This document shows positions 16,087-61,947 of a DNA stretch of 64,000 nucleotides, piece by piece. The stretch's first letter is position 1, and each line of letters starts with the position of its first letter. The notes beneath the pieces were generated by a model. The model worked only from the letters and a program-made list of their open reading frames with translations, was not told the origin of the DNA and made no database searches. A program made the position numbers and the translations under genes. Origin of the DNA: Vicugna vicugna (taxonomy: Eukaryota); NCBI GenBank assembly GCA_013265495.1, contig MU058045.1:655986-719985 (forward strand). The letters are read 5' to 3'.

Positions 16087-17080
<994 letters not shown>

Positions 17081-20934: not shown

Positions 20935-23900
20935 CTATTTCTTGGGATGCGGTTTGCTGCCCAAGAGCCCATCTATCTCCATCACCGTCTGCGGGGTCAG
21001 CTGGCTCAGCACCTGGAGGAGAATGGGGTGGTGGAGAGGGCAGGACATGCAGGGTCCCTGAAGAAGGGCAGGAGGTTTGAGGACTCTGGGAGCAGCACAG
21101 CCAGGACAAGTGGCAGGGAAAAAGTTGCAGCGGTGCCCCTGCCTTGCCTTCTCGCCCTAGGACTTCTTATCTGCAAAGCGAGGACCTTGTAGTGGGTGAC
21201 CCTCACAGGCCGTTCTGGGTTGGACAGCAAGGCCTTTACCGCTGGGGAAGGGGAGAGAGATGGGCTCTGCCTGAGACCCCACTCACCTGTAGGGCGCCCA
21301 GATGTTCTATCAGCTGCTCTGCACTGGACACCCCCAGCAAGACTGAGCTGACACCCTCACTGCGGAGACACCACGCTGAGACAGAGGAGGAAAAGAGAGA
21401 GAGAGAGAACTGATGGGAAACAGCACATAGACTTCAAAAGTGTCTCTGAGGAAGAGGGTCCTCCCTGAGGACAAACCCATCTGTGGTTTGGCAGCATCTC
21501 AAGAGATGACAAGGCCCCTGCAGGGTCTAGGGCTGGCAGTGTCTTACCAATCGCAAGCTGCGCCACAGTGCAGCCCAGCTGGTGAGCGATGGGGAGAAGG
21601 TCCATGACTTTGGCTTGTTGCTTCTTGCCGTCGTCACTCTGCACTTTGTCTTTGAGCCACTGGTAGCCCTGGAGGCCAAGAAGAATTAGCAAAAGACCAC
21701 TCCTCAGATAGTCCGCTCCTGCCACCCTGACCCCCAGATCTCACCTTGATGGTGACCCTGCATGTATCTGGGACTCGCCCATCATACTTGCTAGTGATGA
21801 GGCCACAGGCCAGAGGGGACCAGGTGACTGAGCCAACACCTAAGAGGAAGAGGACTGAATGTGGGAAAGGGATCTAGGTGATGGTGAGGCCGAGGGAAAG
21901 GTAGGGATGAGGGGACTGCAAACCAATCTTGTGGTAGAGCTCTGGCAGCTGCATCTCCACTTTCTCTCTCTGAAACAGATGGTGCTCAGCTTGTTCACAC
22001 ACTGGAGGAATCAGATTGAACTGTCTGGCCATGGAGTAGGCCTCCTAGGTTGGGGTAAGGAAGAGTTGGGAGTCAGAGCACTCCTTCCATTTTCTCCCAT
22101 CCCCCTCCTCCAGTGGAGTGAGGTTTGGAGTGGCTGTGTGAAAAGTGGGAAGAGGTTGTGGGATAGGGGGAAGTGGGTGGAACACTCACCATGATTTCTG
22201 CAGCCCCCCATCGAGACGTCCCCCAGTATAGGGCCAGGCCCTGGTTGATGACGTAGGTCATGGCTCGCACAATCTCTAGGCACATAGGAGAGGAAAAGCC
22301 TCACTGTCAGACCCCTGGCATCCGGGTTCCAGATCTGCAGACCTCTGCCTGCTCCACCAAGACCCCACTCATCCCTGTGGAGTTGGAGAGGTTGGTATCT
22401 GCTTTTCACTTCCCTCCCTGTCCAAGTCCTGGGGTCTGAGCCTCCACTGTGGAGCTTGGGAGGCCTCCTGAGCAAGGGCTGGCTTCATGCTGAGGGTTTG
22501 AGAAGTGCTTAGTTTTGAAGGGCTGTCAGGGTTGGGGTGATTTTACCCTCCATAGGACTGTTGGGGTCTGAGCGATTGGCAAAAACAATGTCCACATATC
22601 CCAACTGGAGGCGTTCCAAGGATCCTCGCAAGCCTGGGGTAAGGATGGGGAGAGGAAGGTAAGTGCTAACGCTTCAGTTTTCTAAAGATTCAGACCTTAC
22701 CTCTTTGCCATGGCCACCTAAATCCAAGCTTTCCTATTCAAAGTCTTAGACTCAGAGCTTCAGAGAATGTTCCCAATGCCTCTGGCTTCCATCCCCAGCC
22801 TCCTCAGGTTCCCAGCCCCTAATTCTCACCCTCGATGATGTGTTTGCGGCTCAAGCCTCGCTCAGTTTCTGCCCTGTAGGAAAAGGTAAGTCAAAGATGA
22901 GGTGTGTCAAAGATAAGGGACCGAGGCTGGCCTGGAACCATGAGGAACTGGGACTGCAAGGGTTCTCACAGGCAAAATACAGACAGGGGTAGCAGGTACA
23001 GGGACTGCTGTCCCCACCCCCATCCCTTGCACCTTCACACAGTCTCTGTAGATCTCCCCAATTACAGTGAGGCAGCCACTTACTGTCCTCCCCAAAAAAT
23101 CTTGGTGGTGATGACATAGCTTGATCTCCTGGAAAAAAACAGAAATGGGAGAACCAAGAAGAAAAGGATTTTTGAATGATCATGTCTCCAGCAAGCCCCG
23201 CCTCCCCCAAACATGCCTTACCTCCAACCTTTGCTCTTGAGGATGTTGCCTAGGGTTCTTTCAGCCCTGGAAGGAAGACAGTGCAGAAGAATTGACCCCT
23301 CCAAGGTGGATCAGTTTCTTCTCCTCCTTTCCACCTTTCCTTTCAACTAACTTCCTCTCTTGTAATATGGAGCATAAATCCTCATCCTAGACCGTAAGAG
23401 GGGTTCCCGGAACTAGGATATAGTCGTATTGTTTTCATTCATTCATTCAACAAATATCAGTTGTGCATCAACTGTATTCCAAGCTCTGTTCTGGGTGCTG
23501 AAGGGACTGGATAGGATGAGAGGAGAGAGGGACCAGCTATGGCAGAGCCAGGGAGGACACTGCTTCATCCAGTTCCAATCATCTGCTTTGCCCTCCCCCT
23601 TATAGCCTCTGCAAAATCCCACCCATCCTCCAGAGTTTAGCTTGGACTAGGCCTAATTTTATGGAAAATGTTCTCTGATTGCTATAAGCTATGTTCAGTC
23701 CTTGTCAGCTTCCATAGGTCTTACTGGCTACACAATTCTTTGGCACTTAATTATGAGTTAATTTGTGACAAGTCTTAAATCATGGTGGGCTGTTACTGAA
23801 GTGTTTCATTGTTATTTAATCTTTCATATCTCCTTGTCTTTTGATTTGTTTAACCACTTAGACTGTGAACTTTTTAAGGGCTTACTGATGGCATCCCATC

Positions 23901-26572
23901 AGTGCCTGTTCTGTGCTAGGCTCTGTGCAAGTACTTAGGTGACATGGGGAAGAGCAAGACAAGGCCTGTGGAAGGAGGAGCCTCCCAGTTGAGCAGCGAA
24001 TGTGGTTTGTAAACCAATAATTGATGAACTATGTGCCAGAGGGCATATAAAGTGCTTTGGGAGCTGAGGGGGTTGGTGACCAACAGTGGGGAGTTGGGCA
24101 AAGACTTCTCAGAAGAGCTGACATCTGAGCCAAGTCTTAAAGAGAAGCAGAAGAGTTTGCCAGAAGGGGAGGAGGCAGGGGTAGGTTATCCTAGGTTTTG
24201 GCTATTCCCAGTGTGAAACCATGTGTGATGTGGTTCAGTGTGTTTGTCATTTAGGTTTGTCATCCTCACATAGTTGCACATAACTGATGTCCAGGAAATA
24301 TTTATTGGTTTTATTTTATTTTGACCACACAGTATGCCCCATTGCTCTCAAAGATGGAGAGAGGCTGATGTTGGGACTACAACTCCCACTGGCCGAAAAG
24401 TTGGAACTTAGTGAGGCAGAGTTCCTGGGGTTCTTTAGGGGGAAAACCAAGAAGCCCTGATGTTCTCTCGGCCTTCCTAATGTAACTTAGCTCTTTGACC
24501 CTGGTCCTTACTTTCCCGCTGCGTACACTTCGGCGGTGTCAAACAGGTTTACACCATGCTCATAGGCTACTGTCAGCACATCCTCTGCTGTCTAGGATGG
24601 TAAGAGAAAGAGTTGAAGATCAACCACTGGCCTCTCAGTTACCTTCCTCACTGCACCCTAGCCCATCACATGCCAACCTTGGTTTCCATGTTCACTCCCC
24701 TTTCCCCATCCTCCACCCTCAGGTCCACCATTCTCCATGCTTGTTGTCCAAACCCCTATCCAAGTCCGTTTCCCCCCTTTTTGGTTCCCTCACACCCCCT
24801 CACCCTGTCTAGGCCCCATCACTTATACCTCATCTGAGATCTGAGAACCAAATGTGACCCAGGTACCTGGAAGAGAGAAGCCAGGCAAGTGAGACCTGTG
24901 GGGGCCAGCCATGAAAGAACACCCCTTCCTTTCATTCCTCCTCTTTCTGACTCACCTAGGCCAAGACAGGATACCCGAAGACCAGACTTTCCTAGGTTCC
25001 TGCAGGATATAGAAGCAGCAGGAAGGGGTGGAGACTCCATTAGGGACATAGATTATCAGCCTCCAGCTCCTCTCCTTCCAGACTGAGATGCCCTCAGGAT
25101 GTCTCAGGCCAAAGAAACTAGACTCAGTGGGCCCACTGAGTTGGGCAGTGCTATGGCCGTAGTGTAAGTGAACAAATGACTATTCGTCTGGAGCCACTGT
25201 CCAATGCCTCTTTTCCCTCCTATCACATTGAAGATGTGCTGCCTGCTTAGCGTTTCTTCTGGTAGGTCTTGTCTGTGTCTGAGTCATCTCTGGGATGTGT
25301 GGAGTCCAGATGGGGGGGTGGGGGTGGCTGGAAGGGATGTAACTGGATGATCGTGATGTTTGTGAAAGCAGGTCCTCAGAGTGCTGTGCTAAAGGGCAGA
25401 CCCTGGGGTGGAAGGGGTAAACCAAGTCAAGTTCAGGCACTCAGGCAGGAAGGGTCTTTGGGTAGGCTAGGCAGATGGGCCTCCAGCAAAGGCAAATAGG
25501 ACACCTGGGGAGGGGCCTAGCAGGAAAGGTAAGTTCTCCCTGTTCCCCTCTGCAATCCCTCTGCTCCTGTTGGCTTGGGAAGTCTGTCTTCCAACCAGAA
25601 GCCCCCTCTTCCCAAGACCCACACCCAGGTAGTCGGCTCAGCTGCTGGATCAGGACCACCACACCAAGGGGATCAGATTCCTCAAGTGACAAAGCCAGGT
25701 CAAATCAGTGACCTCTGCTCACTCCCAAGTAGGAGTCCCTCCCCTGCCCCCTACTGCTAGTTCTGAGAGCCCTGCAGTTCTCCGAGATAGTCGGTTACAT
25801 TTCAGTCCACCTTCCCCACCTGGCCCCTGTCCCTCAGCATGGGGTTGAGAGATGTGGTCCATCCTTCTTAGGGCCCCACTGCCCTCCCAACTAAGAAAGG
25901 TTGCAGGAGACCTTGGGGCAGCTGGGGTCAGTATCTGGGTCAGGCACCCTGAGCAGGCCAGAGTGAGAAGCTGTTTCCTTCCCCTCTCTTCCCAGGACAC
26001 AGACCCAAGGACGCTCCAGAGGGGTGCGCAGCCTGGAGATCCATGCATCCCTGGCCTTCCTGGGGGTAAGGAGGGAAGCTTGGGAGCATTGCCTGGTCTG
26101 ACAGGACCCGGTCAACCTTGGCAAACTTGATTTTCTACTAGTCAGGGGTATCGATGGAGACCAAGAGAAGGAACACGGAAAGGAGTGATGGCAAGAAGAG
26201 ATAGAATGAGCCGGGACCTTCTTAGTGAAGTCTGAGGGGGTCCTGGCAGCATCCCAGGAAGCTTCAGGGGTCAGGAAAGGGGAGGGCTCAGGAGATGTGG
26301 CGGGCTGCCCGGCCACCGCCATACCTGTATTTCATGCCAGTGCCTCGGCCGGTGCTCTCTCGGAGGGCCCCAGCGGGTGCTGGGGGTCGGGGGACCACTG
26401 CGGCCCGAGCCTTGGGGCCCGACCCTCCTCCCCCTCCACCCGGAGGGTTCCCATGCCCCCCGCCGACTGGCCCGCCATTACCGCCCCCGGGGCCCGGCCG
26501 GGGTCCACACAGACGGTCCTCACTGCTTCGGCTGCGAAGGTTCTGCTCGGTACAAGCGATAGACACCTGCAT
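20935..26572 (-). CDS. KCNAB3: Voltage-gated potassium channel subunit beta-3 (Kv beta 3, aldo-keto reductase fold), 406 aa
   Basis: 14 exons: 26572-26325, 24999-24956, 24866-24829, 24591-24512, 23266-23222, 23128-23084, 22873-22830, 22633-22547, 22275-22190, 22044-21924, 21839-21745, 21668-21548, 21375-21287, 21012-20935; 1221 nt, in frame. [17 protein letters not shown]-terminus, [29 protein letters not shown]. PolyA AATAAA (minus) at 20022-20017. Confidence 0.97.
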
Positions 26573-27782: not shown

Positions 27783-29002
27783 TCAGCCAGCCCGGGCAGA
27801 GAAGAAGGGCAGAGAGCGGACGTAGGAGTCCAGTCGAGAGCGGAAGAGCTCACTTTGCACAGTTTAGCCCAGCGGGCACAGGGGATTCTTCACCACTAGT
27901 TCCACATACAGCTGTGGAGGGGGAGGGTGTTAGAGCCAGGCTTTGGAGACTTCTTGTTTTCAACCCCAAATCTAGTATAACCTCAAGGGTATGTGAATGC
28001 ACGGGGATTAAGGGCTGGGAGGCAAACCCTCCTTGGGGAGAAAATGGTGGTGGGAGTATATAAGGACCTAAAGGGTCCCGAGAAAACTGACTTCAATAGA
28101 GAAACAATAAATTAGGATTGGGACAGGAAAGCTGAAGGAATCCTGGGACTCTAAGTGGCCATGGCTGTTGAGGCTTTAGGGGAAGGGTCCAAGGGGCTGG
28201 CACTGACCGCACTGTAGATGTGGTGCAGCACATCTCAGATGGGTCCCACGCCCAAGTCAGTATTCATGACAACCTTGATCCCAGTGGGTGTCTCGTAGTA
28301 ATGGAGTTTGTAACGGCTAGTTTGGAAGGCCAGGAAGCCGTCCTTCCTGCAGAGATGAGGATGTTAAGGAATGGGAGCGTAATCTCTCCCAAAGAGATAC
28401 TTCTGATACCCTCTAGGTTGACTCCCTCTTTAAACAAAATCGTTTGTAGGAGCCTGGGTGAGTAAAGACACCTCCCATCTTCACCCCTCAATTTAGCTCC
28501 TGCACCCAACCTCTAGGTTCAGATCTTCCCCACCACCGTTCCTGCCAGCTTCAGCACTCTCTCTGTCTTCTTACCCTCTAATGTCACTAATGTGACTAAG
28601 TGACTAATGTCACTTCCACTCCAGAAAGTTTCCCCCACCCCCAAATTCCCTCCTTCCCTCAACATCCCCTCAGACTCCACGTACATGTCTAGCGGGGACA
28701 TCTTGCTGACAAACGAGCGGATAGAGAAGAGCATCCCGTACATCAGCTTGTATTCCTGAAGGGAGAGGGGCAGTTAGTTCTCGGTTGTTAAAAAGAGACG
28801 GGGCAGGGGTGGGAACGAGCCAGGGTTGGAGAGGAGGGCTGGTCGGGGCTATGTGCATTTGGATATGCGAGGTCACCCAGGTTGCGCGGGGCCCTCTGAT
28901 CACCTCCTCCTTGGGGATCCCCGCTTCCTTCTTGCGGTGCCACTCGCTGTAATGCAGACACACTCCATTCCGGTCAAACAGGTACAGGTTGTGGACAGTC
29001 AT
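27783..29002 (-). CDS. TRAPPC1: Trafficking protein particle complex subunit 1 (Bet5), 145 aa
   Basis: Exons 29002-28904, 28755-28685, 28346-28208, 27911-27783; 438 nt; [21 protein letters not shown]...LPFFSARAG*. PolyA AATAAA (minus) at 27536-27531. Probable 5' UTR intron starting at GTGAG 29112. Confidence 0.97.
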
Positions 29003-29420: not shown

Positions 29421-30200
29421 GAAGAGGGCAATCCCTCGTTCCCAACTTGGCAAATTGCAGGGCTGAGGACTGGAAGTGTGGCGAGTAGTCGGAACGGTGT
29501 GGTCGAGGTAGAGGATCTCAGGCTAGGCTTCAGGCCCTGTACATTTTACGGACGTCTGAGGGCGTGATTGAGTGTTCACAGAGATTCTTGCGGGTAGTAG
29601 GGTGGGAGGGATTCTGGGGAGCCTTGCTATGGCTTTCTTGCCAGGAGGGGTCGGAAGGGATGTATGAGAGGGTTGACCCTGGGTAGAACGGGTGCCGTGG
29701 ACGGAGGGTTGTGGGGAGGTGGGGAGCGTGAGCCCAGTAAAGGGCCGATAAGCCAGCTGGACGAAAATTAGGCCCCTGTTGAGTTTGAGTCTGTTTCACT
29801 TTGCATAGTCTGGGTGTGAGAACTTAAGAGCTCGGTTGACCAGTGATAGCCTGTGCCAGAGGTTGATCTGCAGCTTTGGGCACTCTAGAGGAACTGCAGT
29901 GGTGCTGTTGCCCCGCAGTAGGTCTTCTGTCCCCACCCCTTCCTTGCTGCACCCTTCTTTCCCACCATTCCCAGGAGCTACGGAAAGAAAATCCTTTGCC
30001 CTCTCCCATGGCTTCTGGGAAATTTGGAAACCTTTCCTTTAACCAGAAAGCCTCTGTACCTTCATTCAACAAGGATCCTTCACTTGGAGTCTTCCTCCTT
30101 TTTCCCAAATCTTCCTTCTAGTACTTTTCCCCTGGGCTCTCCTAAAGCAGAACCAGGAGTTCCCAGCTTTGCTGTCTGCAGTTGTCTCTTCCCTGTACTC

Positions 30201-33200
30201 ATGGCAACATCAGCTACCAGCCCCAGCTCACCTCTCAGGGCCAAGGATCTCCTGAGTGATTCATCAGAAGCCCCTGGGCTGAACCAAGTGTCCTCTGAGG
30301 TAACCTCCCAGCTCTATGCTTCTTTGCACCTCAGTCGTCAGGCGGAGACTACAGCCCGAGCCCAGCTGTATTTACCCTCCACCTCCCCACCTCCCCACCT
30401 CCTCACGAGGTGTTAGATGGCTTGGCACAAGAGCTGAGTTGCAGCTTGTCGGCTGGACTGGAGAACAACTTGAAGAAAAAGGTGAGGGAGATGTGTCTTG
30501 GGGACCTCTGGGGTCTTGGGATTGGGGATGGTTAAAAAAATTAGCTTTACTGAGGCTTGAACTTCTATTTTTGGATTCCAATTTCCTTTTAACTACATAG
30601 TCAGCCATGCTTGTGCCTGGGAGCAAATGTTTATGAGGGGGAGAGTGGCCTGGGCCACCATAATTTGGAAAATTGTGAAACTTCCTAATATTGTTTGTTT
30701 GCCAGAGACATCTGTGGGATGGGTTGCTGTGCTTTGATTGGGACATGGATGCTGGGAGTGAGGATAAGGTTTCTTCATCCCAGGAGGCAGCTAGGGACTT
30801 AAGGATAGCAGCAACATAGGCTAAGATCCTTCCAGCTCAAAACTATTTTGATTGTATAGCTCAAAATTTGGCATGTAAGTCATTAAAACATAGTTTAATC
30901 AATTATACGTGTTACAGAGAAGGTAGTGTTGGACAGAACAGGTGTCATAACCAAATTGCAGACTAGTTAAGCCTCCCAGAGTTTGAAAAACTGATAGCCA
31001 TGGACTGCAGAGTCTTTAGATAGGGGAAAGGGACTTGCTGTCTAGCTGGCAGGAATCCTCACTATTCTTGTCTTAAGGTGCCCAGTTAATTCATTTACGC
31101 TACTTGTCTGGCTTCTGTGAACATTTGAGTTTCTTATTGGGTCAGTTCTGTTTTTTTCTTGCTTTCCCAGGTGCTACAGTAAAAATTATTGGGCTTTAGA
31201 GGTTACTGGATGCCATCTACCCTGGCAGTAGGTAAAATATGGATTATTGCATCTGATTTCCACATGGCTCTTTTCTAGGATGGTTCCAAGCATATCTTTG
31301 AGATGGAAAGTGTTCGGGGTCAACTCCAGAGCATGCTCCAAACCTCACGTGATGTGGCCTATCGTGAGTAAACCCCTTGCCTATAGAGGAGAATCTAGAT
31401 TTAAGGGATGAGAAAAAGTAGAGAAAGGAAGTGGAGTATGTGTGAGCTGGGGACCTAGACCTCTGAGAAAAGAGACTTCAGGAGGAAAGGCCCCAGTTCT
31501 TTGGGAGAGGGGTGGGAGGAGAGGGTAAAGGGGAAAGGAAGGACCTCTCCTCTCTTCTCCTTCAAGTGGTCCCTGTTCCCATCCTTACCTGACCCTGCCT
31601 GTGGATCCCTCTGGCTGCCTGCAGGGGATGCCCCTACTCCAAGCGCTGACTCGGAGGGACGGGAAGAGGATTCCTTTGACAGTGACTGTACAGCCACCTT
31701 GCTTAAGTGAGTTCTCCTTGGGGTTCTTCTGGCTGGTTCACTTTCTTTCCTGGAAGGCCAAGTGTTCTATCCATTAGTCTCCCTTTACTGCTTTTGTACC
31801 TCTTAGGGACCTAAGATGCTTGTCACTTAGCTTTCAGTTTTCATCCTTTCTCTCCTCTGTTCTATCCACTTTACTCCTTCAGGTAAATGGGTATCTTCTG
31901 CCTAGTACCTGGCTTTCTCGCAGCTTCTAGTCCTTCCTCCTCCAGAGGAGTTAGCTTGTTTCTGCTGAGACTTGTACTTAAGGCAGTATGAGACGGAGGA
32001 GGGAGCACTATAGGGCGAATCACAGAACCTGTGTGCTGTCTGTGGCCCTGTCACTTATCTCTGAGCTTTTGACTTTCGGCAAGTCTCTTGCCCTGAGTTT
32101 CAGTTTCCTCATTTGTAAAACGTCGCAGTCGGACTAGTGGATCTCAAAAGCTTTCCCAACCCTAATATTTTCTACCTGATTTGCTCAGCACCCGGCCGCT
32201 GCAAGACTTGTCTCCATCTAGCTCAGCCCAAGCCCTGGAGGATCTGTTTCCCCGCTATGCCAGCCTTCGGCCAGGGCCCCCACTCAATCCCCCGGATTTT
32301 CAGGGGCTGAGAGAGGCACTGGATTCAGAGCATACTCGTCGCAAGGTGAGATATAAAGCCTTCCTTCTGAAAGCAGCAAAGATTAGAAATAGGGCCGAGT
32401 GCTGGTAGTTAAGAGCCTACCAGCTGGGACTTTGCACACATGGCTCTTGGCTCTTCAGGGAGGCCTTCTTTGACCATCCTGTCTAGAATGGTACACCTCC
32501 CCTCCACGTATTCATTCAGATCATTCTGTTATTCCCTTCATATAGTTTATGAAAGTCTGATAGATCTTGTTTGTTTCTCCCCTCTAAAATCTAAGCTCCA
32601 TGCGGGTCATATCGAATCTTGTTCAGCACTGTCCTCCTAAAGTCTAGACTATACCTAACACATAGAAGTACTCCATACATGTTTGGTGAATGAACAACCA
32701 ACTTTGTTGGCTTGTGCAAAGCTTTTATAGCTATCGGTGAAATAATGAGCTTTATCTCTCTGAGCCCCAGCCTGTCTGAAAGGGACAGAGAGAGGGACGA
32801 GACAGAGGAAAAGTTGAAATCATTGGCTGTGCTGTCATTTTTGAAACTCTTTCTTCCTCTATTTTAAACTGCCGGGGCATGAATGAAAGGTTCTCCCCTT
32901 TCTCCTTGTTCTGTTGAATCATTGTGCCCAATAAGCTTATTAAGGCAGGAATAACTTCCCACTCTGCAGCGTGGGCTGCTGCAGCCCTGCCAAAAGGATC
33001 CTGGAAATTTTTCTCAGGAGATTTGGGAAAGGGAAGAGCCTGGAAGCGAAGCCCCTGCTTCGTGAGGTGGCTGAAGAAGATGTTGGAGGTCTCAGGCCTC
33101 AAGGTTCCTGCTCTAGAATTCCTGATTCTCCTGCTCCAAACCTATTCTGTTCTTGGGACCCAGGCTCCCTGTCTCCAGCCCATTTCCCCATAGAGATGCT

Positions 33201-36200
33201 GGAAAGTTTGGTGCTTTGGTCAGACTAAGGATAGTAACACCTAGACTCCCCACCCTTCTTTTCAGCATTGTGAGCGCCACATTCAGAGCCTGCAGACCCG
33301 AGTGCTAGAGCTTCAGCAACAGTTAGCCGTGGCTGTGACTGCCGACCGCAAGAAAGATATCATGATTGAACAGCTGGACAAGGTGCCAGGGTAGCGGAAG
33401 GTGGGTGGGTCTTTCCATGGGGTGGGGCACCAGTCAATAGTGAATAGGAGGAGTCCACCCAGTGTTTCTTTGTTCACTTTAGGAGCTGGGTATGGGGTGG
33501 GTTTGCTGACTACTGGGAGAAGGTGGCTGTTGACCCTGCTCCTGTGGGTGGAAAGAGGGCAAAAAAATTATTTGAAATTCTGTCTGACTTTCCTCTCCTG
33601 AGACCCTGGCCCGCGTGGTAGAGGGCTGGAACCGGCATGAAGCTGAGCGGACAGAGGTGCTTCAGGGACTCCAGGAGGAACGCCAGGCCGCTGAACTCAC
33701 TAGAAGCAAGCAGCAGGAGGTGGGCAACGTGGATCACGCGGCATTAGAACCTAGTCACTGATGGCTGGGTGGAAGAGGGTAGAAATGGCTCTGGGATCAG
33801 GGTTCCCAACAGATTGACCTCAGTCTTGCAGTAGCGGGCCTGACAGTTCTCCCATTTCTTCTCCCTTCACTGTTTCTGCTGTGAAACTTGCATCATTGAT
33901 CATCTTCCCAGTTTTCCTCACACCACATGGTCTTCTCTTTGGCCTGCAAGTCGTTTAGTTAATTCTTGCCTTTAAAGTTTACGTTGTTAATTATTTTTGA
34001 AATATAATGTACAGGGATTCCCCTCAGTTCCTCTGTCCTGCATTCCTCTCTCCCCGAAAGACAGTAACCCGCCTGGAACAAAGCCTTTCTGAGGCCGTGG
34101 AGGCCCTGAATCGTGAGCAGGAAAGTGCCAGACTGCAGCAACGGGAAAGAGAGACCCTGGTGAGAACGCTGGGCAGGGTTAATTCCAGTAGAGGCTGTTA
34201 ATTACTTCGAGAGGGATATGGGGTTTTGGTGGATTGTGGGAGTTCATAATTTGAGATGCACCAGGGCAAAGTGTGCGTCTAGTTCTGCTAGTTCTGCTAG
34301 ATACACTATAGAAAGTGAGCTCTTTCAAAGTAAGTTTGAAAGACTCTGCAAATTGTACCTGCACTAAAATTATCTGTGGAACTATTGTAAAATATAGATT
34401 TCTGGGACCTTTCCCCAGAGGTTTTGATATATAGGAGGCTGGGGAACCTAAGTATTTTCAGGAATTTTCTAGGTGATTTTGTTCAGCCAGGTTTGGGAAC
34501 TCTGGTCTAGGGCATAGCCAAAAACGGTATGGGATGAGCAAGTTTCTAATTGCTGAAAGGATGAGATGATTACCCCTATGAATTAGTAGCCAGGTTTCGA
34601 ATTTCTTGCATGCATGACACATGCTTGCTACATGCATGCTGTTACTTGTATTCTTAACAGGCTACATCCAAGAATGCTGATGACCTAATTACCTCTCCCT
34701 CATAAAACAAAATAAAATAAAACAGAACAAAACAAAAAAAGAGTGCTGATGATGGCTGCCGATTGGCTAATGCATAGGTGTAGGCTGGATTTTGTAGTCT
34801 TTCTGGAATTTCTTTTGATGATGATGGTGATCGCTGTTGTATGTTGAGTGTTTACTACATGCCAGACACTGTGCTACATGCTTTACATATGCTTTATAAA
34901 TCTTTTGTTTCATTGAAGCACAATATTGTGTCAATTTCATATGCTTTTAACTTTAATCCTTACACAGTAGACTTTACTGTTATGCCCATTTTACAGATTA
35001 GGATGTCTGCCTGAGAACACATAGTAAATGCAGAGTTGGGATTCATCTGAGATTTGACCCCAGATCTACCTAATTCTGGAACAGAAGCTCTTATTTACTA
35101 CATTATAATCCTGCAGGCTTGTTAAGTGTTGCATTTTAATGGATATAATTCTCAGTGGTCACATTGTGTGGGAGTGAGGGGCAGATTGCTGGTCTCTTGA
35201 GGACATGCTAAGGATCTTGGTTTCCTCATGGGGCTATAGGAAGAGGAAAGGCAAGCGCTAACCCTGAGCTTGGAGCTAGAACAGCAGCGGTGCCGGGCCC
35301 TGCAGGACGAACGGGATGAGGCTCGGGCTGGGCAACTCAGTGAGCGTCGACAGTTGGAGACCCTTCAGGTGGCCCTAGAAGAAGAGCGGCAGACCCGGGC
35401 CCAGCAAGAGCATCAGCTTAAGGAACGCTACCAGGCACTGCAGGAGGAGAGCCAGGCTCAGCTGGAAAGGGAGAAGGTAAAAGCGGCAGTTGGAGAATGG
35501 GGAACAGGTTAGGGACAAAATAATTGAATGAGGTGGATGTCAGAATATGTGGCACAGGGACTGGGATGGAGAGGGAAGAGAACTGTATGTGGGAGAGAAG
35601 ATTGAGAGTATAGGGCCTGCAGGAAGGGCTGGGGCATCAAATGCATGGGAGGACGAAGGGTGAGATTAAACAGAGATATCAGGAAATAGGTCAAATGTGA
35701 AGAGAGAGGAAGCTTGGGTTTTAGGGTTTGGAAGGATGAATCGGGGAATTGAGGTAACCAGGAGACAGGAAATGAGGTACGAACTTCAGTTTGATTTCCC
35801 GTTCTTAGGGGAACACCCAGAGGGAGTCGCAGGCAGCCCGAGAGGCGCAGCAGCAGCTGGCCTTGGTGCAGTCTGAGGTGCGGCGGTTGGAAGGAGACCT
35901 GGATACAGCTCGCAGAGAGAGAGATGCCCTGCAGCTGGAGATGAGCCTGGTGCAGGTCAGGAGGCAGAGGGCTCCTGAGGAGCGTTCCTGGTGAGGAGAA
36001 GTGGGTCTGAGGCAGAGGGACTTTTAGGAGTCATGGCAGACACTCCCATTTCTAACTAGAATTTTGACCTTTATGGACCTCTGTTTTTTTGTGTGTAAAG
36101 GGCAAATTAATGAGTTTCTAAGAGACTTTTTTTCCTTATTAATGATTGACTTAAGGAGATACCCAATTTCTGAGTTAGTGAGGCCAGTGTTTGAAAAAAC

Positions 36201-39200
36201 ACACTCTTTACTTTTCACCTCGCCCATTGAATTGGAGGACTGACCACGTGGAGACTCATTTATCACGGAGGGCCAAGGGCAAAGACGTTAGTAAACAATT
36301 CAGTAGCAATTTATAAGCTGCTGTGTCCCCTGAACCGGCGCTAGCTGTGTGTGTGAACGCGTGCATTCAGTAAGCCTGTTGAAGGCCCGTCTATGTTAAG
36401 CTCTGAGTTAGGAGCTGGGAACAGTCCTGGCCAACAGGGAGCTTACCAGCTAGCTGGGAAGTCTGTCTAGTAGTTGTGGTTGCTGGATATGTGGTAAGGA
36501 TATGTTTAGTTTTGTAAGAAATCACCACAGTGTCTTCCAAAGTGACTGTACCGTTTTGTATTTCCAACACCTATGAATGAGAATTCCTGTTGTTCCACAT
36601 TCTCACCAACATTTGGCGTGTCAGTGTTCTGGATTTTGGCTTTTCTAGTAGGTATATAGTACTATGTAGTGAATTTTTTATATCGTCAATTGTATTTTTC
36701 AGCTCTAGAATTTCTATTTTGTTCCTTTTTATAATTTCTATCTCTTTATTGACACTTCCTATTTGTTCTTACATTGTTCTGATTTCCCTTAGTTTGTTGT
36801 CCATATAGTGTCCATAGTTAAGACTCTTGACTTAATGTCTTTGACTAGTAATCCCAATGTCTGGGCTTCTATAGGGAGAGTTCCTGTTAGAGTCTCTTTT
36901 TTCTTTGAATGAGGCATATTTTCCTATTTCTTTGCATGTTTTATAATTTTTTGTTGAAATCTGGATATTTTGAGTACTGTAGTAACTCTGGAAATCATAT
37001 TCTTTCCCTCCTCAGGGATTTCTTTTGATGGCCACAGCCATCTGTTTGTATAGTGACTTTTCCAAATGGTTTTTGCAAATAGTATTTCTTGTTGTGTGTG
37101 GTAATTGACATTTCTGTTCCATTGTCTCTGTGATTATCCTGTGACCTAACAGATTTTCTTAAATGTCTGGGTTCCCCTTCCCCTTGCCCCAAAAATTTTT
37201 TAAAAAGAGTATATATGTCTCTTTAAATCTTCTGATGGATTGAACCAGAGAAGTCTCTGTAGCCCAAGGAGCTCAAAGCAAAAGCAGTTGTCCTCTCTGG
37301 TTCCTCAGGGAACTGCCAGACTGACCAAGACTTGCAGTCCCACATTTTTGGAGGATAAGGTCCTTACTGCCCTTGCTTCAGGCAGCCACTCTAGTAACAT
37401 GGGGCTAGGGATAGGGGATGGTAGCTGGTTCACACACGCAGCTCTCTTACCAAAGTTCAGCAGCCTCTTCCTTCAACAAGCACTCTCCTGGTTGCTTCAG
37501 GCATCTGATCAGGTTTCAGAATTCCCAAATAGTTGATTTTGACAGTTTTTTCTGAGCTTAATGGTTGTTTTGGTATAAGGACTGACCCCTGATGTTTCCT
37601 ACTCTGTGTGACATTACTCTTTTTTTCTTTTTATGTTCACTCTTTTTTTTTAATTCTATTTTTTAAAAGTAAAAAACCACCATGAGACATTATTAATTTG
37701 TTTTATAAAGTCAGTATTCATTTAGAGGTATCCATATAATTTACTACTTTCTTTGCTTTTCTTCCCTTCTTTGAACTCAGACCTTCTGTCTGGCATGTTC
37801 TGCTTGGTGGCAAAATCCATCTTTCTTTCTTCATTCATTCATCTATTCATTTATTAATTTGCTTTTGAAAATGTCTTTATTTCACATTCATTTTTGAAAT
37901 AGTTCCTGGGTGTGAAATTCTAGGCTGGCAGTTATTTCAACATACTGAGAACATCATTCTGGCTTCCATTATTGCTGTTGAGAAGTCAGCTCTCAGTTGA
38001 CCACTCTTGCTTTTGAAACTTTCTCTTTGTAGTTTTTTATCAGGTTTACTGGGGTGTGGTTCATGTATTTTTAAAAAAAAAAAGAAAAGAAAAGAAATTC
38101 TTTTGGGGATTCTTTAGTCTTCTTGCCTAAGTGGAAGTTGTCTTTCTTCGATTCTGGAAAATTCTGTCATTATGTCTGCATATCATTTCTCCTCCATTAT
38201 CTCTGCCATCTCTTTCTGGAATCTGATTGAGTATATTTGAGCCCCTTTCCCTGTATCTATGTTGCTCATCCTCTGTTTTGTATTTTCCATCTTTTGTATT
38301 TTCATGTTCACTCTGGATAATTTCTTGTCTTCCAGTTCACCAATTCTCTGTCAACTTTGTCTAGTCTACTGTTCTATCCACTCATTGAGTTTAAATTTTC
38401 ATGTATTATATTTTTTATTTTACAACTATTATTTTTATTTTCAAATCTTTATTTTTCATAGTTTCTTGTTCTTGATATTTTCAAGTTTGCCTTTGATTAC
38501 TTTAAACTGTTTTATTATCTATAGATGATAATTCCAATTTCCGAAGTGTTTGAGGATCCTTTTCTGTTGTCCCTTGTTTTTGCTGGTTCCCATGGAGTTT
38601 AGTTTCTTTAGGCCCTGTTAATTTTTTACTGTGTGCTGGACCTTGTATTTGAAAAATCATAGTCATAATTTGAGGCCTATAATGAAAGTATTTTGCTCCA
38701 GAGAAAATTTGCATTTGCTTCTACCAAGCCCTGAAAGACACTGTAAGTCCAGGATCAATTTAAACCAAACTTTCCAGGTTGGGATTCCTGGGTGACTCAA
38801 ACTGAGCTTTAATTTTATGTAGACTCTTCCACTCAGGTTCACCTTCACCCTGAGGGTGAAGCTCATTGAAATCTCAGTTTTTTTTGTGGGGAGTATCTCC
38901 AGTTAGACTCTGTAACTGAAGTGGGCCTTGGCCTTTGATTTCTGTTCATTTGCTTTTGAAAGGCAGTCAAAACAAAGGTTTCAATTTCCTAGGATAGGGC
39001 AGATAACCCCAAGGTAAAAATGGCTACCTACCACACTTGCTAAGCTGGCCAGGCTCCCATTTTTCCTTTACTTTGGCCTAGTAATTCCGTACTATTTCGT
39101 TACCTCTTTGATGCTTTTTAGGAAGGTACAGATATAGATATAGATATAGATATAGATTTAGATTTTTTTTAGTATTTTATTCAGTTTGTTTGTTTTTGTT

Positions 39201-42200
39201 CAGCATTAGATAACTTAATCTGCCAGTACTAGAAACATGATCTAATCCCCCTCTTCTTATACTTCAAAATAGTTTGTAAGGTTAGATTTAATGTATTTCT
39301 TGAATACTTGATATTTGATTACTGACTTTGTTTCTTTAATATTTATAGAAATATTTAGGCTTTCTATTTATTCTTGAATTTTTTTGGTGCTCTCTCTATA
39401 TATATATTTAGTCTATATTTTGTAATCTGTTGACTTAAAGTTGTTCATAATTTTAACCTTTTAATGTCCATGGCATTTTTTCTATGGATATTATTCTGTC
39501 ATCCTCTCATCCTCTTTTTTTAAAACCGTCTTACTTGTGGTTTAATTGAATATATTTTCCAGAGAATTAACTTTTGGCTTTGTTGATCTTTTTTAATTTC
39601 TATTTTATTTTTTTTTACTTTGGGTGGTGTAATTAGGTTTGTTTGTTTGTTTGTTTGTTTATTATTTTTGGTGGAGTTACCATGGATTGAACCCAAGACC
39701 TTGTGTATGCTAAGTATACACTCTACCATAGAGCTATAGCCTCCCCCTACACACACCCACACTGTAATCCTGTGTGATATTTATTGTTTGGTTCTGAATA
39801 ATACTGTTTTTTTATATAATTACTCTTTGATCTCCTGGGTTATTTCCAAACTATAGGGTGTTTTTTATTATTGATTTATAGCTTATCTGATCTGNNNNNN
39901 NNNNNNNNNNNNNNNNNNNNNNNNNNNNNNNNNNNNNNNNNNNNNNNNNNNNNNNNNNNNNNNNNNNNNNNNNNNNNNNNNNNNNNNNNNNNNNNNNNNN
40001 NNNNNNNNNNNNNNNNNNNNNNNNNNNNNNNNNNNNNNNNNNNNNNNNNNNNNNNNNNNNNNNNNNNNNNNNNNNNNNNNNNNNNNNNNTGAGTATTTCT
40101 TTTTGTGTCTAGTTTGTTAACTATGCTGTTTAAATCATTATGTTCTTTTTTATTTTCTTCTGTTAAAATCTCACTGAGTATGGATTTGTCTGTTTCTCTT
40201 GTAGTCTGTCAGATTTTGCTTTATACATTTTGAGGTTATTAGATGCATATAATTTAAAAAATTGCTGTACCTTTCCTGGTAAACTGAATGTCTTATCCTT
40301 GTGATTACTCTCTTTATCTCTTATAAGGCTTTTTGCCTTAGAGTCTATTTTTGCCTATATTGCTAGATCTATATTAGTCTTTATTTTGCATTCTTTTTTT
40401 AGTGAAGTATAGTCAGTTTACAGTGTTGAGTCAATTTCTAGTGTACAGCATGTTTCAATCAAGCATTTTTTTAGATAGAGTTTCCCTGACAAATATTTTT
40501 CTAACCTTTTTACTCCAACCATTATATATTTGCCTTTTAGCTGGAACATTAATTTAATTTATTCATAGCTGAATCTATGTCTTAACTTTCTATCTTATTT
40601 TGTCTTGCCTATTCAGTGTTTATTTTCTTCTTTCTTGTCATATTTTAGATTTACTATTTTTTCCTCGTTCCACTTTTTTCAAATAGCTTGGGTGTTTCAG
40701 TGGAGAGAGGTGCCATTAACTCAGGCAGGAAATACAGCAAAAGAAGGTTTTAGGGTAGAAAAACAAATGAGCTCACTTTTGGATGTGTTTTATTTGAGCT
40801 ATTCGGTAGATTTCTGGGTATATGGGCTTAAAGCTTAGAAGAAAGTCCAGTTTAAAGAGAGAGATTTACAAAGGGTTTTAAGGTATATACGGTAGCAAAA
40901 AAAAAACATGGCCTAAAAGCATCGGTGATGCAGAATGGTAGCATATGGTCAGAAAGAAAACTGAGGCCAGAACTCAAGGAATCATTTGGCTTTGATGGGC
41001 AGCTGGAGGAGAAGCAATCAGCCAAGACTGAGGAACAGTCGGACAGGATGAGATGCAGGGCTGCTGGTCCCATGGGAGTGAAGGGAAAAATGATTTTAGA
41101 AGGAAAAAGGCAGGTGTTGCAGTGAAATCACGTAAGATAAAAGACTGAGAAATAACCACTGTGAGATTTAGAAATTAAGTTCTTAGTTGTGAGTGGAAAT
41201 GTCAGTGAGTTGAAGAAGGAATATGAGGTGAGAAAACAGAGACAACGATTCTGCTTTAGGAGGAAGGAACGTGGACATTTATTGAACCCCTGTCCTGGGG
41301 GGGTTTCAGGAGCTGCGCCAGAAATACTGCATGTGTTATCTCAGACGTGGTAACAGACTTGGTTGTTCTGCCTATCATTTCTTTTGGTTAAAAAAAAAAA
41401 CATTTTTTTGGTCCAAAGTCATTTTTACTTTTGTACACATATAAGGTGTGAGCATCTTAATGAGGAAAGGAAACCTCTTCCACTCCTTGTGGCCGAATTC
41501 TTGTTCTTGATCCTTTAGGCTTATGAGGGAATGTTGGTATGTGGGTTTTTTGTCTACCTTGTATCCTCCATCCTCTTCTAAGCCAAACAGAACTGAGCTA
41601 TTACCCCACCTCCCCTTACCCCCAGGCTCGGTATGAAAGCCAGCGGATCCAAATGGAGTCGGAGTTGGCCGTGCAGCTGGAGCAGCGAGTGACAGAGCGG
41701 CTGGCGCAGGCTCAGGAGAGCAGCCTGCGGCAAGCAGCCTCCCTGAGGGAGCATCACAGGTACCCCGGGCTGGAGGGGTGCCACCTCTCCCCCCAGCAGC
41801 AGCGGGTGTTGGTGCCCTGCCCAAACCCTCTCAGACCCCTTTGCCATTTTCCAACACACCGGTGCTGTCAGTCTCTCCGTGAGAGAGCTGCCTTCGGGTT
41901 CACAGGGAGAGCCAGACATGCTTGGGAATTTTCAGTCTTCATCCCGTGGGAAGCAGCACTTAACCAATAACTGGTGGGTACAGGAATATAAATTTCCAGC
42001 TCCCTAGCCCCTGGTGGGCACAATGCTAAGCTGTGACCTACAGCATCTCCAGAATTACCCTGTGGGATTGAGCCTCCTCTGCCTACTCCCCTACCAGTTT
42101 TTTTCTGGAAATGCTTCTTAATTGAATCATTTCCCCATAAATCCTCACCTCAGTCTCTGCCTCTGGGGAACTCATCCTAAGACACCAGCTGTCCTTACCT

Positions 42201-45200
42201 CTTTCCTGAACCCCCCTGTGCCGGGCCCAGGTTGGCCAGCTGGCTGGCTGACTCTCACAGGCACACATTCTGGTTTTCCCTTGTTTGATTACTTCTCCTG
42301 TCTCCAGACTCAGTCCTCCTTTCTCACCTGTGTCCCCTCAGGAAGCAGCTGCAGGAGCTGAATGGACAGCACCAGCAGGAATTGTCCACCCAGTTGGCTC
42401 AGTTCAAGGTGGAAATGGCAGAACGAGAGGAAAGGCAGCAGCAGGTGGCTCAGGACTATGAGCTCAGGTACCGGTCCCTGGAGCATCCCTGTTAGGCCTC
42501 AGCCTCCGTGGGAATGGTGACAAGTTGCCTCCCCTGAGACCTGTCCTTTCTGCATGGGCCCAGCTCCTTTCAGAATTTCACATGTCACCTTCCCTTCTGA
42601 CTCTTCCTGTTGTCCGAGTCTCTGCTTTCTCCAAGGCCCCACATCACCCCTCTGGCTTCTCTTTAGACTGGCCCGGGAGCAGGCGCGAGTGCGTGAACTG
42701 CAGAGTGGGAACCAGCAGCTGGAGGAGCAGCGGGTGGAGCTGGTGGAGCGACTCCAGGCCATGCTGCAGGCCCACTGGGAGGAGGCAAACCAGCTGCTCA
42801 GCTCCCCTCTCCTGCCGCCCAACCCCACGGTAGGCCTCGCCCTTGACCCAAGCTGCTCAGAGCTGTGTTTTGATCCTTTCTGTGGAAATCGAGCTCCCTC
42901 CCAAGGGAAGCCTGTAGTTCAGTTCCTGGGACCTTCGTCAGGAAAAATGTCCATGGACTTCTGCAAAGAATAACTGTTTCATCCAAAGAAACCTTTTTGC
43001 CGTGGCCATAGCTCACTCAGACTGGCTCCACTGCCTTGGGCATAATTTCCTTCTCTCTGCCCAAGAGGGGGTGAGTAACATGTGGTGCTAGTTTTGCCAA
43101 AGGGCAACTGAATGAATTATGATGGTCAGGGCCAGAAATTGGTTGGGATTCTCACCCTTAATCCTCATATTGGCATCACCTACTTCCTTCTTTTAATTAT
43201 TAAATGTTTATTATGAGCTAAAATAATTTTTGGAATAGGTAATAATATGCACATGGTTTCAAAAAAACTGTTCACAAATGCATACAGTGAAAAATGATCT
43301 CCACACTATGCTGGCACCTCATTCTCCCAGTCCCTCCCCGCCCCGAATCAGCCACTGTTCCTAGTATCTTGAGTGCCTCCCCTGCCCCCAAACAGTAGCC
43401 TTCAGAAAAACTGTTCACAAATGCATACAGTGAAAAATGATCTCCACGCTATGCTGGCACCTCATTCTCCCAGTCCCTCCCCCCCCGAATCAGCCACTGT
43501 TCCTAGTGTCTTGAGTGCCTCCCCTGCCCCCAAACAGTAGCCTTCCATTCACGGTTATATGACTTTTTATTTAACCAAGTGCCTATTGGTGGATATTAAA
43601 TTTGCTTCCTATATTTTGCTTCTGCAAACAGTGCTGCAAGCAGTATCATGAATATATGTCTTCATACAAGTATATGTATAAAATTTCTAGAAATGGAATT
43701 GTAAGATGAAAAATAAGGATGTTAATATTTGATAGAAATTTGGTAAATGTCCCCAGATCTCCTTTTAAGGACACTATGCTAATTTGTAATCCTATTAAAG
43801 CGTCTGTACCGTGTCTTGACTCCTCAAATGCACTCTCTCTCATGCCCAGGTTCCTCCAGTCAGCCCATCCAGCCCTGGGCCTCAGGAACTGGAGAAGGGG
43901 GAGAGGAGGATGTGGACTGTGCCCCCTGTGGCTGTGGCCCTAAAGCCAGTGTTGCAGCAGAGCCGGGAAGCAAGGGAAGAGCTGCCTGGAGTGCCGCCTG
44001 TTCTCTGCAGCCCCTCCCCAGATCTTAGCCTCTTGCTGGGCCCCACTTTCCAGAGCCAGCATTCCTTCCAGCCCCTGGAGCCAAAGCCTGATCTCACTTC
44101 ATCCTCAGGTGACTGGGGACGGAAGTTACTGGGGTTCCCTTTGCACACACTGATTTGCTCCCTCTTGTCTAGCTTCCTTTCTGTCCGAGACTTGAGCATT
44201 TAGTTTCCCAGATGTCTAGTGACCATAAGTTGCAAGGAGCAGAAATCCACTCAAGTTGGTTCAAGTAAAGGGAATGAGAAATGTGATGTATCTGTGGTTA
44301 ATGAGAACTGGGGTTGGCATCAGGGATGCTGCCGGGAACTGGGGCAGCTGTTCCTCCTCTCTTTGGGCCTGTGTGGGCTCTAGACTCTGCCATCCGGGCA
44401 TCTGCTCCTTCCTCTTGGTCGACCAGCCCTCTCTCACTCTGGTTCTTGCTCTCACAACTTTGGTTCGCTTGAGCAGCTGTGACTCTGACTCCAGCCGAAA
44501 CTCCAGACAACCCTGCAGAGACATTGGTGTCTCTGTTTCTTAGGTCCAGTTTAAAGAGAGGCAATCTGATGGGTTAGTAACCATCCCTTGGATCAGCTGA
44601 CCTTGAGTGGTGGCCACCCCTGTGACAGGTGGATGGGGTGCTCTGTGTGGTGTAAATATGACAACCCAGGTCAAAATAAGAATGAGCGTGTGATCCAGTG
44701 AAGGATCCGGAACAAGTCTATTGATTTTTACTTTTAATTTTATTTATTTATTTATTTACTTACTTATTTACTTATTTATTTAAATTGAGAAAGTGTCAGT
44801 TTACAATGTTCTATTTCTCATGTACAGCATGCTTCAGTCATGTATACACGTACATATATTTATTTTCATATTCATGTGGTTACCGGAGGGGAAAGGGGGT
44901 GGGAAGGGATAAACTGAGAGTTCGAGATTCGCAGATACTAATTACTATATATAGAATAGAAGTATAAGTTTCTTCTGTCCTGCACAGGAAACAATATTGA
45001 TCTTAAACCATTCTGTGCTGTGGTGGCGTTTATTTACTCAGAGTCTGAGCACCACAGCTTTCCCCTGACTGCACTTCTGTCGCAGAATTCAGCTGTGCCA
45101 TCTTTCAGTTGCCGTCAACCCTTCCCTCTCCAGCTGTTTTCAACTTTGATCATCTCCTAGTTGTGATACTCTGCTTATACTAAATAGGCTCCTTCCTTCC

Positions 45201-47301
45201 AGGCATTTGGTGAGTTGATTTGTGGAGGGGCCCCTTCCCTCTACAACACACACCCCTGTTTCACTTGACAGCGGAGGCCTTCTCTGCAGTCGGAACCTTC
45301 CATCCCGATCACAGGGCTGAACGGCCGTTCCCTGAGGAAGATCCTGGGTCCGACAGGGATGGCTTCCTAAAGCAAGGGCTGCCGCCCGCTTCCCAGCTTC
45401 AGGGCCTCAAGCATTTTTTGCAACAGGTAAAAGAGGGCCCACCTGTGCCACCTGGTTATCTCCACCCCTTCCTCATTTCCTCTTTCTGCTCTGGGAGTCC
45501 TGCACTGTGGCTTCGTCCACCTTTTAGGACTAAACCTTCCAACTAGCTTCTGCCTCTCCCAGCCCATCTTATTCTTACTACGGCAGTCCCTTCTGGAACT
45601 TAGGTGACCAGTCCGAGCTCTTACTCTCCCAAGACACAGAGGTCTCTTTCTTCATCAGTCCTCAGGGAACCTTACTGTCTTGTCCCCCCAGCTGCTGGAG
45701 ACAGCACCCCCAAGCAACGAGAACCCCTCTGCCGACCTGCTGCCCACCAAGTCCGGTGAGTGTCAGCTCTGAAGAAGGTCGGGGCTGGGGCTGGAAAAGG
45801 TGGGAGCTGGTTATCAGGGATGGCGTTGTAGGAGCCGGCAAAGGAGACAAAGCTTCATGAAGGCTAAGGTGGCAGGACTTCCTTGGCTGTTTGCCCCATT
45901 TTCTGATCTTGAATCTCTTCCCTTGTGCTAGGTCCTCTGACTGTCCCAACTTGGGAGGAAGCCCCTCAGGTGCCACGCCTCCCACCTCCTGTCCATAAAA
46001 CTAAAGTGCCCTTAGCCATGGCGTCCAGTCTTTTCCGGGTCCATGAGCTTCCCTCAGCCCATTCACAGAGCGGTGGTCCCCGCGGTGGCTCCCCAGAGAG
46101 AGGTAAGAGGTCACAGTTTACTGGCAGATAAGAAGGGAAAGTCTCAGGCGTAGAGCTGGTACCTGCAACTGAAGGCTCTCCGGGATTTGGAGAGACGGGA
46201 CACAGCCTGGGGAGAGGCCCTGGGATGACGACCTTTACTGATGTGTCTCAGGTGGAGATGGGCTCGCATCCTCAAGGCAGCTGATGGAGGTGTCTCAGCT
46301 GCTGCGACTCTACCAAGCTCGGGGCTGGGGGGCGCTGCCTGCGGAGGATCTGCTGCTCTACCTGAAGAGGCTGGAACACAGCGGGTACCAGCCTGGAGGG
46401 ACGGGAGGAAAGATTAGGTGGATGGAATCTGGATTGTGGCCAGGCAGATGGGTCAGGCAGGGAAGAGCGGAGTGTGCATGTTGTCCATTGAGTAGCATCG
46501 TTTGTCCTTTTCTGGGGAAGAAGTGAGGGCAGATCAGTGGCTCCTCCTCTTCCTCCCTCTCTCACTCCTTCCCACCTCTCTTTTGTTTCTACCTTTCTGT
46601 TGTTTCTTAAAAGAAAAATCTCTTCTTCATGTCTTTCTGCCTTAATTTTTTCTTCTTTATTCTGTGACTCAGAACTCAGAATCCTAGATTGTGACCATCT
46701 AGTATGTCAGTATTTGATTCCACTAATGTCTCCTCGTATTTGATCCCTGGGTTTGTCTTGTTTGTTTGTTCTTATTCTTAAGAGACAGAACTGGGGAATA
46801 ATTCTTCCACCCAGTGTTGGGGAGAGTGGGAGGACCAGCTCCCCCATCCTCATCCCTTGATTTGCATGGCAGGACTGACAGCCGAGGGGATAATGTCCCC
46901 AGAAGGAACACAGGCTCCCGCTTGGGTGAGATCCCCCGGAAAGAGGTGAGGGAAAGTAGGGCAGGGGCGAGGGGGGTGGAAGGGCTCTCACTGACTCGTC
47001 CCTCCACTTCGCACACTCCTCCATCGCCTGAACCCTCCATCCCTGTTCCATTTTCTGTGGCTTGTTCCTTGCCCTGTGCCAATTCTGGCCCTCCCAACGC
47101 ACAACGCCTTTCCTCAATGGTGGGGGACTGAGAGGACACGACGCTGAGTTTTCCTTCTTTTCCCTCAACTCTCAGATTCCTTCCCAGGCTCTCCCTCGCC
47201 GCCTCGCTACAGCCCCTAAGACTGAAAAGCCTCCAGCTCGGAAAAAAAGTGGGCACCCAGCCCCTGGTAGCACGCGGAGTCGGGGGGGAATCTGGAGATA
47301 A
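30201..47301 (+). CDS. CNTROB: Centrobin (daughter-centriole protein), about 905 aa if the exon-1 frameshift is corrected
   Basis: 19 exons: 30201-30481, 31279-31363, 31625-31706, 32189-32345, 33266-33382, 33603-33719, 34061-34159, 35240-35476, 35809-35955, 41626-41759, 42342-42467, 42667-42829, 43850-44108, 45272-45426, 45692-45755, 45932-46102, 46252-46384, 46873-46945, 47176-47301. Starts MATSATSPSSPL, coiled-coil middle, ends RSRGGIWR*. Exon 1 has 8 extra nt (see findings). PolyA AATAAA 47351-47356. Confidence 0.95.
39610..39747 (-). mobile_element. tRNA-derived SINE (camelid-type)
   Basis: Minus-strand head GGGGAGGCTATAGCTCTATGGTAGAG...GGGTTCAATCC with A/B-box-like motifs and an (AAAC)n tail. 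Confidence 0.8.
39895..40089. other. Assembly gap (195 N)
   Basis: Run of n characters. Confidence 1.
43258..43542 (+). repeat. Two-copy tandem duplication, unit about 143 bp
   Basis: 43258-43400 and 43401-43542 differ by about 3 substitutions and a 1-nt indel. Confidence 0.95.
44730..44995. mobile_element. Short 5'-inverted LINE-1 3'-end insertion with (TTTA)n tail
   Basis: Antisense L1 3' end (to about 44873) fused to a sense L1 3' UTR piece (gtggttaccggaggggaaaggggg...); flanked by TATTGATTTT / TATTGATCTT. Confidence 0.65.
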
Positions 47302-47879: not shown

Positions 47880-48024
47880 CATTTATTTTTATTATTTAAC
47901 TGTTTTATTTTGGCATGGGGGAAGGTAATTAGGTTTATTTATTTTTAGAGGAGGTACTGGGAATTGAACCCAGGACCTTGTGCATGCTAAGCATGCACTC
48001 TACCACTGAGCTATACCCTCCCCC
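47880..48024 (-). mobile_element. tRNA-derived SINE (camelid-type)
   Basis: Minus strand GGGGAGGGTATAGCTCAGTGGTAGAGTGCATGCTTAGCATGCACAAGGTCCTGGGTTCAATTCCC plus tail AAACCTAATTACC. Confidence 0.85.

Positions 48025-50194: not shown

Positions 50195-61947
<11,753 letters not shown>

Follow-up and report, generated by a model that had tools for sequence, protein, structure and literature searches.

We find that the centrobin gene (CNTROB) in a 64,000-nucleotide stretch of Vicugna vicugna DNA, hereafter the window, carries a frame-breaking third repeat unit in its first coding exon, and we favor the reading that the TRAPPC1-CNTROB block is multiplied, that its assembled form is probably a collapsed mosaic, and that the extra unit belongs to a spare copy. 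The gene is laid out as follows.

30201..30481, plus strand: CNTROB coding exon 1, placed by comparison with camel and alpaca proteins
30379..30402, plus strand: three CCACCTCC units, the third of which shifts the frame (from the sequence)
30414..30416, plus strand: premature TAG after 71 codons (from the sequence)
31279..47301, plus strand: CNTROB exons 2 to 19, with canonical splice sites and 815 open codons, modeled from camelid proteins

The 19-exon model was built on camelid proteins, and the dromedary centrobin XP_031323571.2 (Camelus dromedarius; 905 aa, with a long coiled coil) is the same protein that these exons encode. Each of the 18 introns begins with GT and ends with AG, and the 815 codons of exons 2 to 19 contain a single stop, the terminal one. 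Among the best 120 of 272 matches to exon 1, the top ones are camel and alpaca centrobins. Over 905 aa (871 aa for alpaca protein P0134), the window protein shows 8, 8, and 10 differences to three alpaca proteins, 14 to 16 to Camelus, and 71 to peccary, and in the tree it clusters with the alpaca sequences (support 91/89). Pfam holds no model for centrobin. Identity thus runs along the full protein, whereas the frame from the first ATG does not pass through a normal exon 1 but closes after 71 codons; in this the window departs from mammalian centrobins such as the dromedary protein.

The lesion itself is simple. Three perfect CCACCTCC units lie in tandem at 30379-30402, and from the ATG at 30201 the frame runs for 71 codons to the TAG at 30414-30416. 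At 281 nt the exon is 8 nt longer than the 273 nt that fit the camel and alpaca proteins, whose match follows frame 1 over residues 1 to 66 and a shifted frame beyond; a two-unit exon would read through 91 codons and reach the donor after 30481 in the correct phase. A preliminary description of this DNA had reported the three copies, the 71-aa frame, the restoration of phase on removal of one copy, and the integrity of the other 18 exons; these readings all hold, as does its assignment of the gene to CNTROB. The window contains two perfect period-8 runs of at least 24 nt, this one and a GTTT microsatellite (a raw count, with no shuffle control). The frameshifted tail occurs in 0 of 231 fetched proteins. 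A stop well upstream of an exon junction is a criterion for nonsense-mediated decay (NMD); the premature TAG sits 65 nt 5' of the exon 1-2 junction, and a normally spliced three-unit mRNA should be an NMD target.

The repeat units encode part of a proline-rich linker between two predicted helices. In 206 of the 208 proteins that could be scored (18 of 226 could not), the anchors of this linker stand 37 to 51 residues apart, every change being in frame; the remaining two are alpaca forms that skip the region. Judged from these sequences, the CNTROB linker is indel-prone. We consider it probable that the extra unit is a real, paralog-specific insertion. In 14 of 24 sequencing runs listed, 0.89 to 0.92 of 211 sampled words were present; the third unit covers only 22 of 1,971 31-mers, too few for this sampling to bear on the repeat.

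Next to CNTROB, the window holds a second damaged gene, and open genes lie on both sides of the pair.

27783..29002, minus strand: TRAPPC1, four coding exons with two in-frame stops, head to head with CNTROB
28235..28237, minus strand: TGA as codon 94 of TRAPPC1; the residue in PDB chain 2j3t_C is Arg
27864..27866, minus strand: TAA as codon 119 of TRAPPC1; the residue in PDB chain 2j3t_C is Gln
20935..26572, minus strand: a gene we take to be KCNAB3, 14 exons, 407 aa open, the left limit of visible decay
50396..61947, plus strand: GSG1-family gene, presumably GSG1L2, five exons, 289 aa open, the right limit of visible decay

Apart from the stops, TRAPPC1 aligns near-identically with 2j3t_C (E values of 2e-26 and 3e-21), and each stop is a single C-to-T step from the expected Gln or Arg codon. 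As TRAPPC1 is essential and doubly stopped here, an intact TRAPPC1 presumably exists elsewhere in the animal, and the two stops are the window's own strongest evidence for extra copies. They also weigh against another explanation, namely that CNTROB is single-copy and that the sequenced animal carries a recent loss-of-function allele of it. Such an allele would suit exons 2 to 19, which are intact and near the ancestral sequence, and a null animal is conceivable, since centrobin-null mice are viable, with sterile males (PMC11920255). However, the same haplotype would need two stops in an essential gene, and the alpaca, a close relative, has three distinct centrobin loci; we regard a single-copy null allele as very improbable. 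Because KCNAB3 and the GSG1-like gene are open, the damage is limited to a block of about 20 kb, and exon-by-exon inspection of the window's CHD3-like exons found no break.

Alpaca RefSeq contains three centrobin loci, identified by cluster look-up, and one record length of 63,315,279 bp is given for all of them (from 15 of the 16 members in the larger cluster).

Alpaca locus A: XP_072796485-7
Alpaca locus B: XP_072796727-8
Alpaca locus C, named "centrobin-like": XP_072796805

Pairwise, loci A, B, and C differ at 14, 18, and 10 residues, and each differs from dromedary at 18 to 22; three distinct sequences are too many and too divergent to be two haplotypes. In contrast, each Camelus species has a single near-identical centrobin set. 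Full-length models of 905 aa are present for two alpaca loci and for all three Camelus species, so an intact copy exists in the lineage and the locus is not a unitary loss. It has instead the marks of segmental duplication, with several distinct copies in the lineage (at the protein level, the three alpaca loci) and retained introns accompanied by disabling changes. At locus C the only form found (XP_072796805.1, labeled isoform X1) is 871 aa long and lacks residues 34 to 67. One would expect a gene model to bypass that stretch only where the copy is broken, which points to a lesion of locus C in the repeat region, although, as deduced from annotation, this lesion may differ from the third-unit insertion. 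The alpaca proteins P0121, P0002, and P0134 carry 6 to 10 changes each since duplication, at least as many as the shared South American stem; either an old duplication or relaxed selection across all copies would account for such numbers.

Among known systems, the block is close to unprocessed duplicates in segmental duplications, and to the alpaca-specific multicopy blocks reported in PMC13751797, such as the NEK10-like genes, which number 19 in alpaca and are single in camels. It resembles these in its retained introns and promoter, in its disabling changes, and in being multicopy in alpaca and apparently single in Camelus. It departs from them in having two or more full-length, open copies in alpaca and in that a two-gene block stands between open neighbors, rather than fragments within satellite blocks. 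One published duplication call was set aside. Data S3 of PMC12127551 places a CNTROB duplication at node N6, which we infer to be the New World camelid node, but this could be one gene split in two, as Data S1 projects two adjacent VicPac3.1 models over all four New World species. The VicPac3.1 centrobin proteins that we fetched start in exon 10.

How many copies the assembled block represents bears on how its residues are read, and two further features of the sequence are relevant.

39895..40089, no strand: run of N, an assembly gap in CNTROB intron 9 and the only gap in the window (from the sequence)
43258..43545, plus strand: two 143-bp copies in tandem within CNTROB intron 12, with 4 differences between them

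With camels and peccary as outgroups, we count 8 derived residues in alpaca locus A, 6 in B, and 10 in C, against 2 in the window, which has the shortest branch of the four; the Poisson P is 0.014 for a mean of 8 and 0.062 for a mean of 6. Of these two, G131 is shared only with A and Q259 only with C. More changes, not fewer, would be expected of a separate copy in decay, and the low count in the window is what a consensus would show. Bearing on whether the block is a duplicated pseudogene, under relaxed selection and with no functional product, are the possibility of an in-frame spliced form and the changes in exons 2 to 19, which are fewer in the window than in the alpaca copies. G372, E390, and Y760, which are common to B and C, are all absent from the window; this is unlike a majority vote of A, B, and C, and so the set of copies here differs or the mosaic is patchy. 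Most likely, the assembled block is a collapsed mosaic of several copies. Real copies with gene conversion between them would give a similar residue pattern, and R259Q is a CpG-type change that could have originated twice. Older alpaca models combine A and C residues, and those models (XP_031527485-8) start just past intron 9, the intron that is gapped in the window. Chromosome 16 is fragmented in VicPac3.1 (PMC6598621). The 143-bp pair is either a real duplication or an assembler's join of two variants. CNTROB, we assume, lies on chromosome 16.

The same features fit a different account, in which the locus is multicopy but the third unit is an artefact of assembly or gap filling among merged paralogs and is in no real copy. 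The N run in intron 9, the 143-bp pair with its 4 differences, which resembles joined variants, the mosaic residue pattern, and the absence of the shifted tail from all 231 proteins would be as expected. Yet locus C, independently, lacks any full-length form among those found and skips exactly the repeat region, and a 71-aa product is rarely annotated, so its absence among proteins says little. A repeat of 24 nt falls below the length of reads and of the usual k-mers, which also counts against an artefact. We hold this account to be unlikely, though it keeps an appreciable share of the probability. The preliminary description had offered a recent allele, an assembly error, or re-initiation; assembly error survives at that same low weight, while all three had presumed a single copy.

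A third-unit transcript could still yield an open frame by splicing within exon 1.

30300..30409, plus strand: predicted internal GT-AG intron of exon 1, leaving an open 871-aa frame, with a junction as in alpaca models
30371..30375, plus strand: candidate branch point with A at 30374, for which AG 30408-30409 is the first AG downstream

This intron is 110 nt long here and 102 nt (34 codons) with two units, and its removal takes out the repeat and leaves an 871-aa open frame lacking residues 34 to 67. The same junction is present in alpaca models XP_072796728.1 (P0127, centrobin isoform X2) and XP_072796805.1 (P0134), which like the window product lack exactly these residues; P0134 also shares Q259. 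The window nevertheless differs from P0134 at 10 residues and from the locus of P0127 at 8, and so is not simply either locus. Among 25 frame-restoring GT-AG routes, scored with a crude matrix built on 38 introns in the window, 30300-30409 ranks first (13.3, against 7.9 for the next). Of the 38 true donors, 20 score below its donor, and a single decoy among 77 does as well as it; its acceptor outscores only 7 of 38 true acceptors, is matched by 11 of 222 decoys, and has G at -3, seen in 1 of 38 true acceptors. By this crude matrix, then, the donor is average and the acceptor weak. The branch point at 30371..30375, chosen by the general consensus, would be used in such a reaction. The frame stays broken if donor 30300 is paired with the TAG acceptor at 30415-30416, and splicing from donor 30300 to exon 2, which gives 847 aa, has no counterpart among the scored proteins.

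Introns lying within coding exons have been described as exitrons (Marquez et al. 2015, PMC4484396). The two-unit allele has the form of one, with a GT-AG intron in a coding exon, a length of 102 nt that is divisible by three, and no stop upon retention, and alpaca locus B has RefSeq models of both spliced and retained forms. With exitrons (PMC4484396), and with splice rescue of frameshifts (PMC8893660), the case here shares a GT-AG intron within coding sequence, its acceptor looking weak on the crude matrix. Unlike an ordinary exitron, the three-unit allele contains a stop when the intron is retained, which would turn the intron into an obligatory one and its predicted splicing into the chief in-frame path from the first ATG. 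GAGGT stands at both ends of 30300-30409, and repeats shared by the ends of a segment carry a risk of reverse-transcription artefacts; the internal junction could be such an artefact or one of annotation. Among 208 scorable proteins, the skip form is confined to 2, both from alpaca. Its junction was found in no cluster representative among the best 120 of 251 matches and 22 of 22 matches, the two known cases being non-representative members. Enrichment by NMD in a broken copy, or an annotation artefact, would explain this rarity.

What the 871-aa form loses is conserved. Residues 34 to 57 are the best-conserved N-terminal stretch (mean of 0.96 over 105 distinct sequences), and a helix is predicted at 27 to 56 with modest confidence (pLDDT of 63 to 72 over residues 31 to 50 in a model of P0002). 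NEK2 phosphorylates centrobin at T35, S36, S41, and S45 (PMC12564199), although the methods of PMC11920255 give the last site as 54; these residues are conserved in 106, 104, 105, and 100 of 106 sequences, respectively. The deleted stretch holds all four sites and most of the first predicted helix, while the PLK1 sites T3, S4, S21, and S22, the coiled coil, and the C terminus are retained. In interphase HeLa cells, a NEK2-resistant centrobin mutant gives fewer centriolar signals (PMC11920255), and the 871-aa form is probably a weakened or deregulated protein. A bolder and rather doubtful proposal is that the 8-bp slip made a latent exitron obligatory in one copy, producing a NEK2-blind centrobin beside normal copies, with the duplicated TRAPPC1 switched off. 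If true, a copy forced to splice out its four NEK2 sites would be a natural regulatory-site knockout that keeps the PLK1 sites and the tubulin-binding tail, equivalent to the NEK2-resistant mutant that is mislocalized in HeLa cells (PMC11920255).

Re-initiation or leaky scanning offers another route to protein, as a fixed lineage change rescued by an 806-aa product.

31303..31305, plus strand: in-frame ATG in exon 2, Met100, flanked by G at both -3 and +4

As the preliminary description had said, this ATG is in frame and in strong context. It lies 89 nt past the premature stop on the mRNA, Met100 is conserved in 161 of 162 full-length homologues, and the Camelus RefSeq isoforms P0135 and P0138 begin there. 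Against rescue, however, out-of-frame ATGs precede it at 30417 and 31280, the latter with A at -3 and G at +4, and two alpaca loci retain a full exon 1. A 71-codon upstream frame is long for re-initiation. Human RPE1 cells that lost 7 bases of exon 1 show no centrobin signal with an antibody raised to residues 113 to 361 (PMC5881496), which argues against re-initiation; if that deletion sits inside the internal intron, efficient splice rescue in human cells is disfavored as well. The suggested rescue at 31303 is therefore poorly supported, and we consider it the least probable of the explanations.

In the favored reading, the TRAPPC1-CNTROB block would have been multiplied in South American camelids, allowing spare copies to gain changes fatal to a single copy, such as the two TRAPPC1 stops, and in CNTROB exon 1, slippage within the C-rich linker would have duplicated one 8-bp unit. 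The assembly would display one block between open flanking genes, likely merged from several copies. With normal splicing, the three-unit mRNA would meet its stop at 71 codons and undergo NMD, so that the remaining in-frame product would most plausibly be the 871-aa centrobin without residues 34 to 67, made by splicing out 30300-30409, and normal centrobin would be provided by intact copies. The frameshift, the TRAPPC1 stops, the three different alpaca proteins, and the openness of the spliced frame are observed; we infer the copy number in this genome, the collapse, the NMD, and the use of the internal intron. The hd rat, with a C-terminal centrobin truncation, has limb and sperm defects (PMC3620055); given intact paralogs, defects of the mouse or rat type are not expected here, and the fertility effect that had been foreseen for a real allele would probably be buffered.

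The apparent CNTROB null should thus not be taken as a true null, and in camelid genetics, a CNTROB or TRAPPC1 variant called on a collapsed assembly may reflect divergence between copies rather than a fertility allele. To have centrobin in three copies is unusual for the mammals fetched; loss of this gene causes male sterility in mice (PMC11920255). The extra alpaca loci are already visible in RefSeq; what is new is the remark that centrobin is three-copy there and a testable NEK2-blind form. No paper on copies of CNTROB or TRAPPC1 in camelids came up in our literature searches, although the VicPac4 genome paper, which lay outside the results, may describe them. The supplements of PMC7331169 and PMC13751797 contain no match for the locus, the parts consulted of PMC13535496 and PMC13322075 add nothing further on it, and the available part of a copy number variation preprint (10.1101/2025.08.28.672513) does not name the gene, its supplement being a possible source on copy number.

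Several smaller observations concern the surroundings of the block. The GSG1-family gene begins 3 kb past CNTROB (47301-50396), where we take the next human gene to be GUCY2D; a rearrangement may have broken the gene order in this interval, at the border of the multiplied block. In Data S2 of PMC12127551, one gene run closes at TRAPPC1 and GUCY2D opens another. Five ATGs with short frames lie 5' of the CNTROB start, at 29353-30119. TRAPPC1 codon 25 is Glu in the window and, we presume, Gln in other mammals. KCNAB3 exon 1 (26325-26572, minus strand) has an in-frame run of six glycines, and the human protein is presumably three residues shorter than 407. Between CHD3 and KCNAB3, at about 15800-16780 on the minus strand, lies a small GC-rich gene with a RING-like CxxC pattern, which we take to be RNF227.
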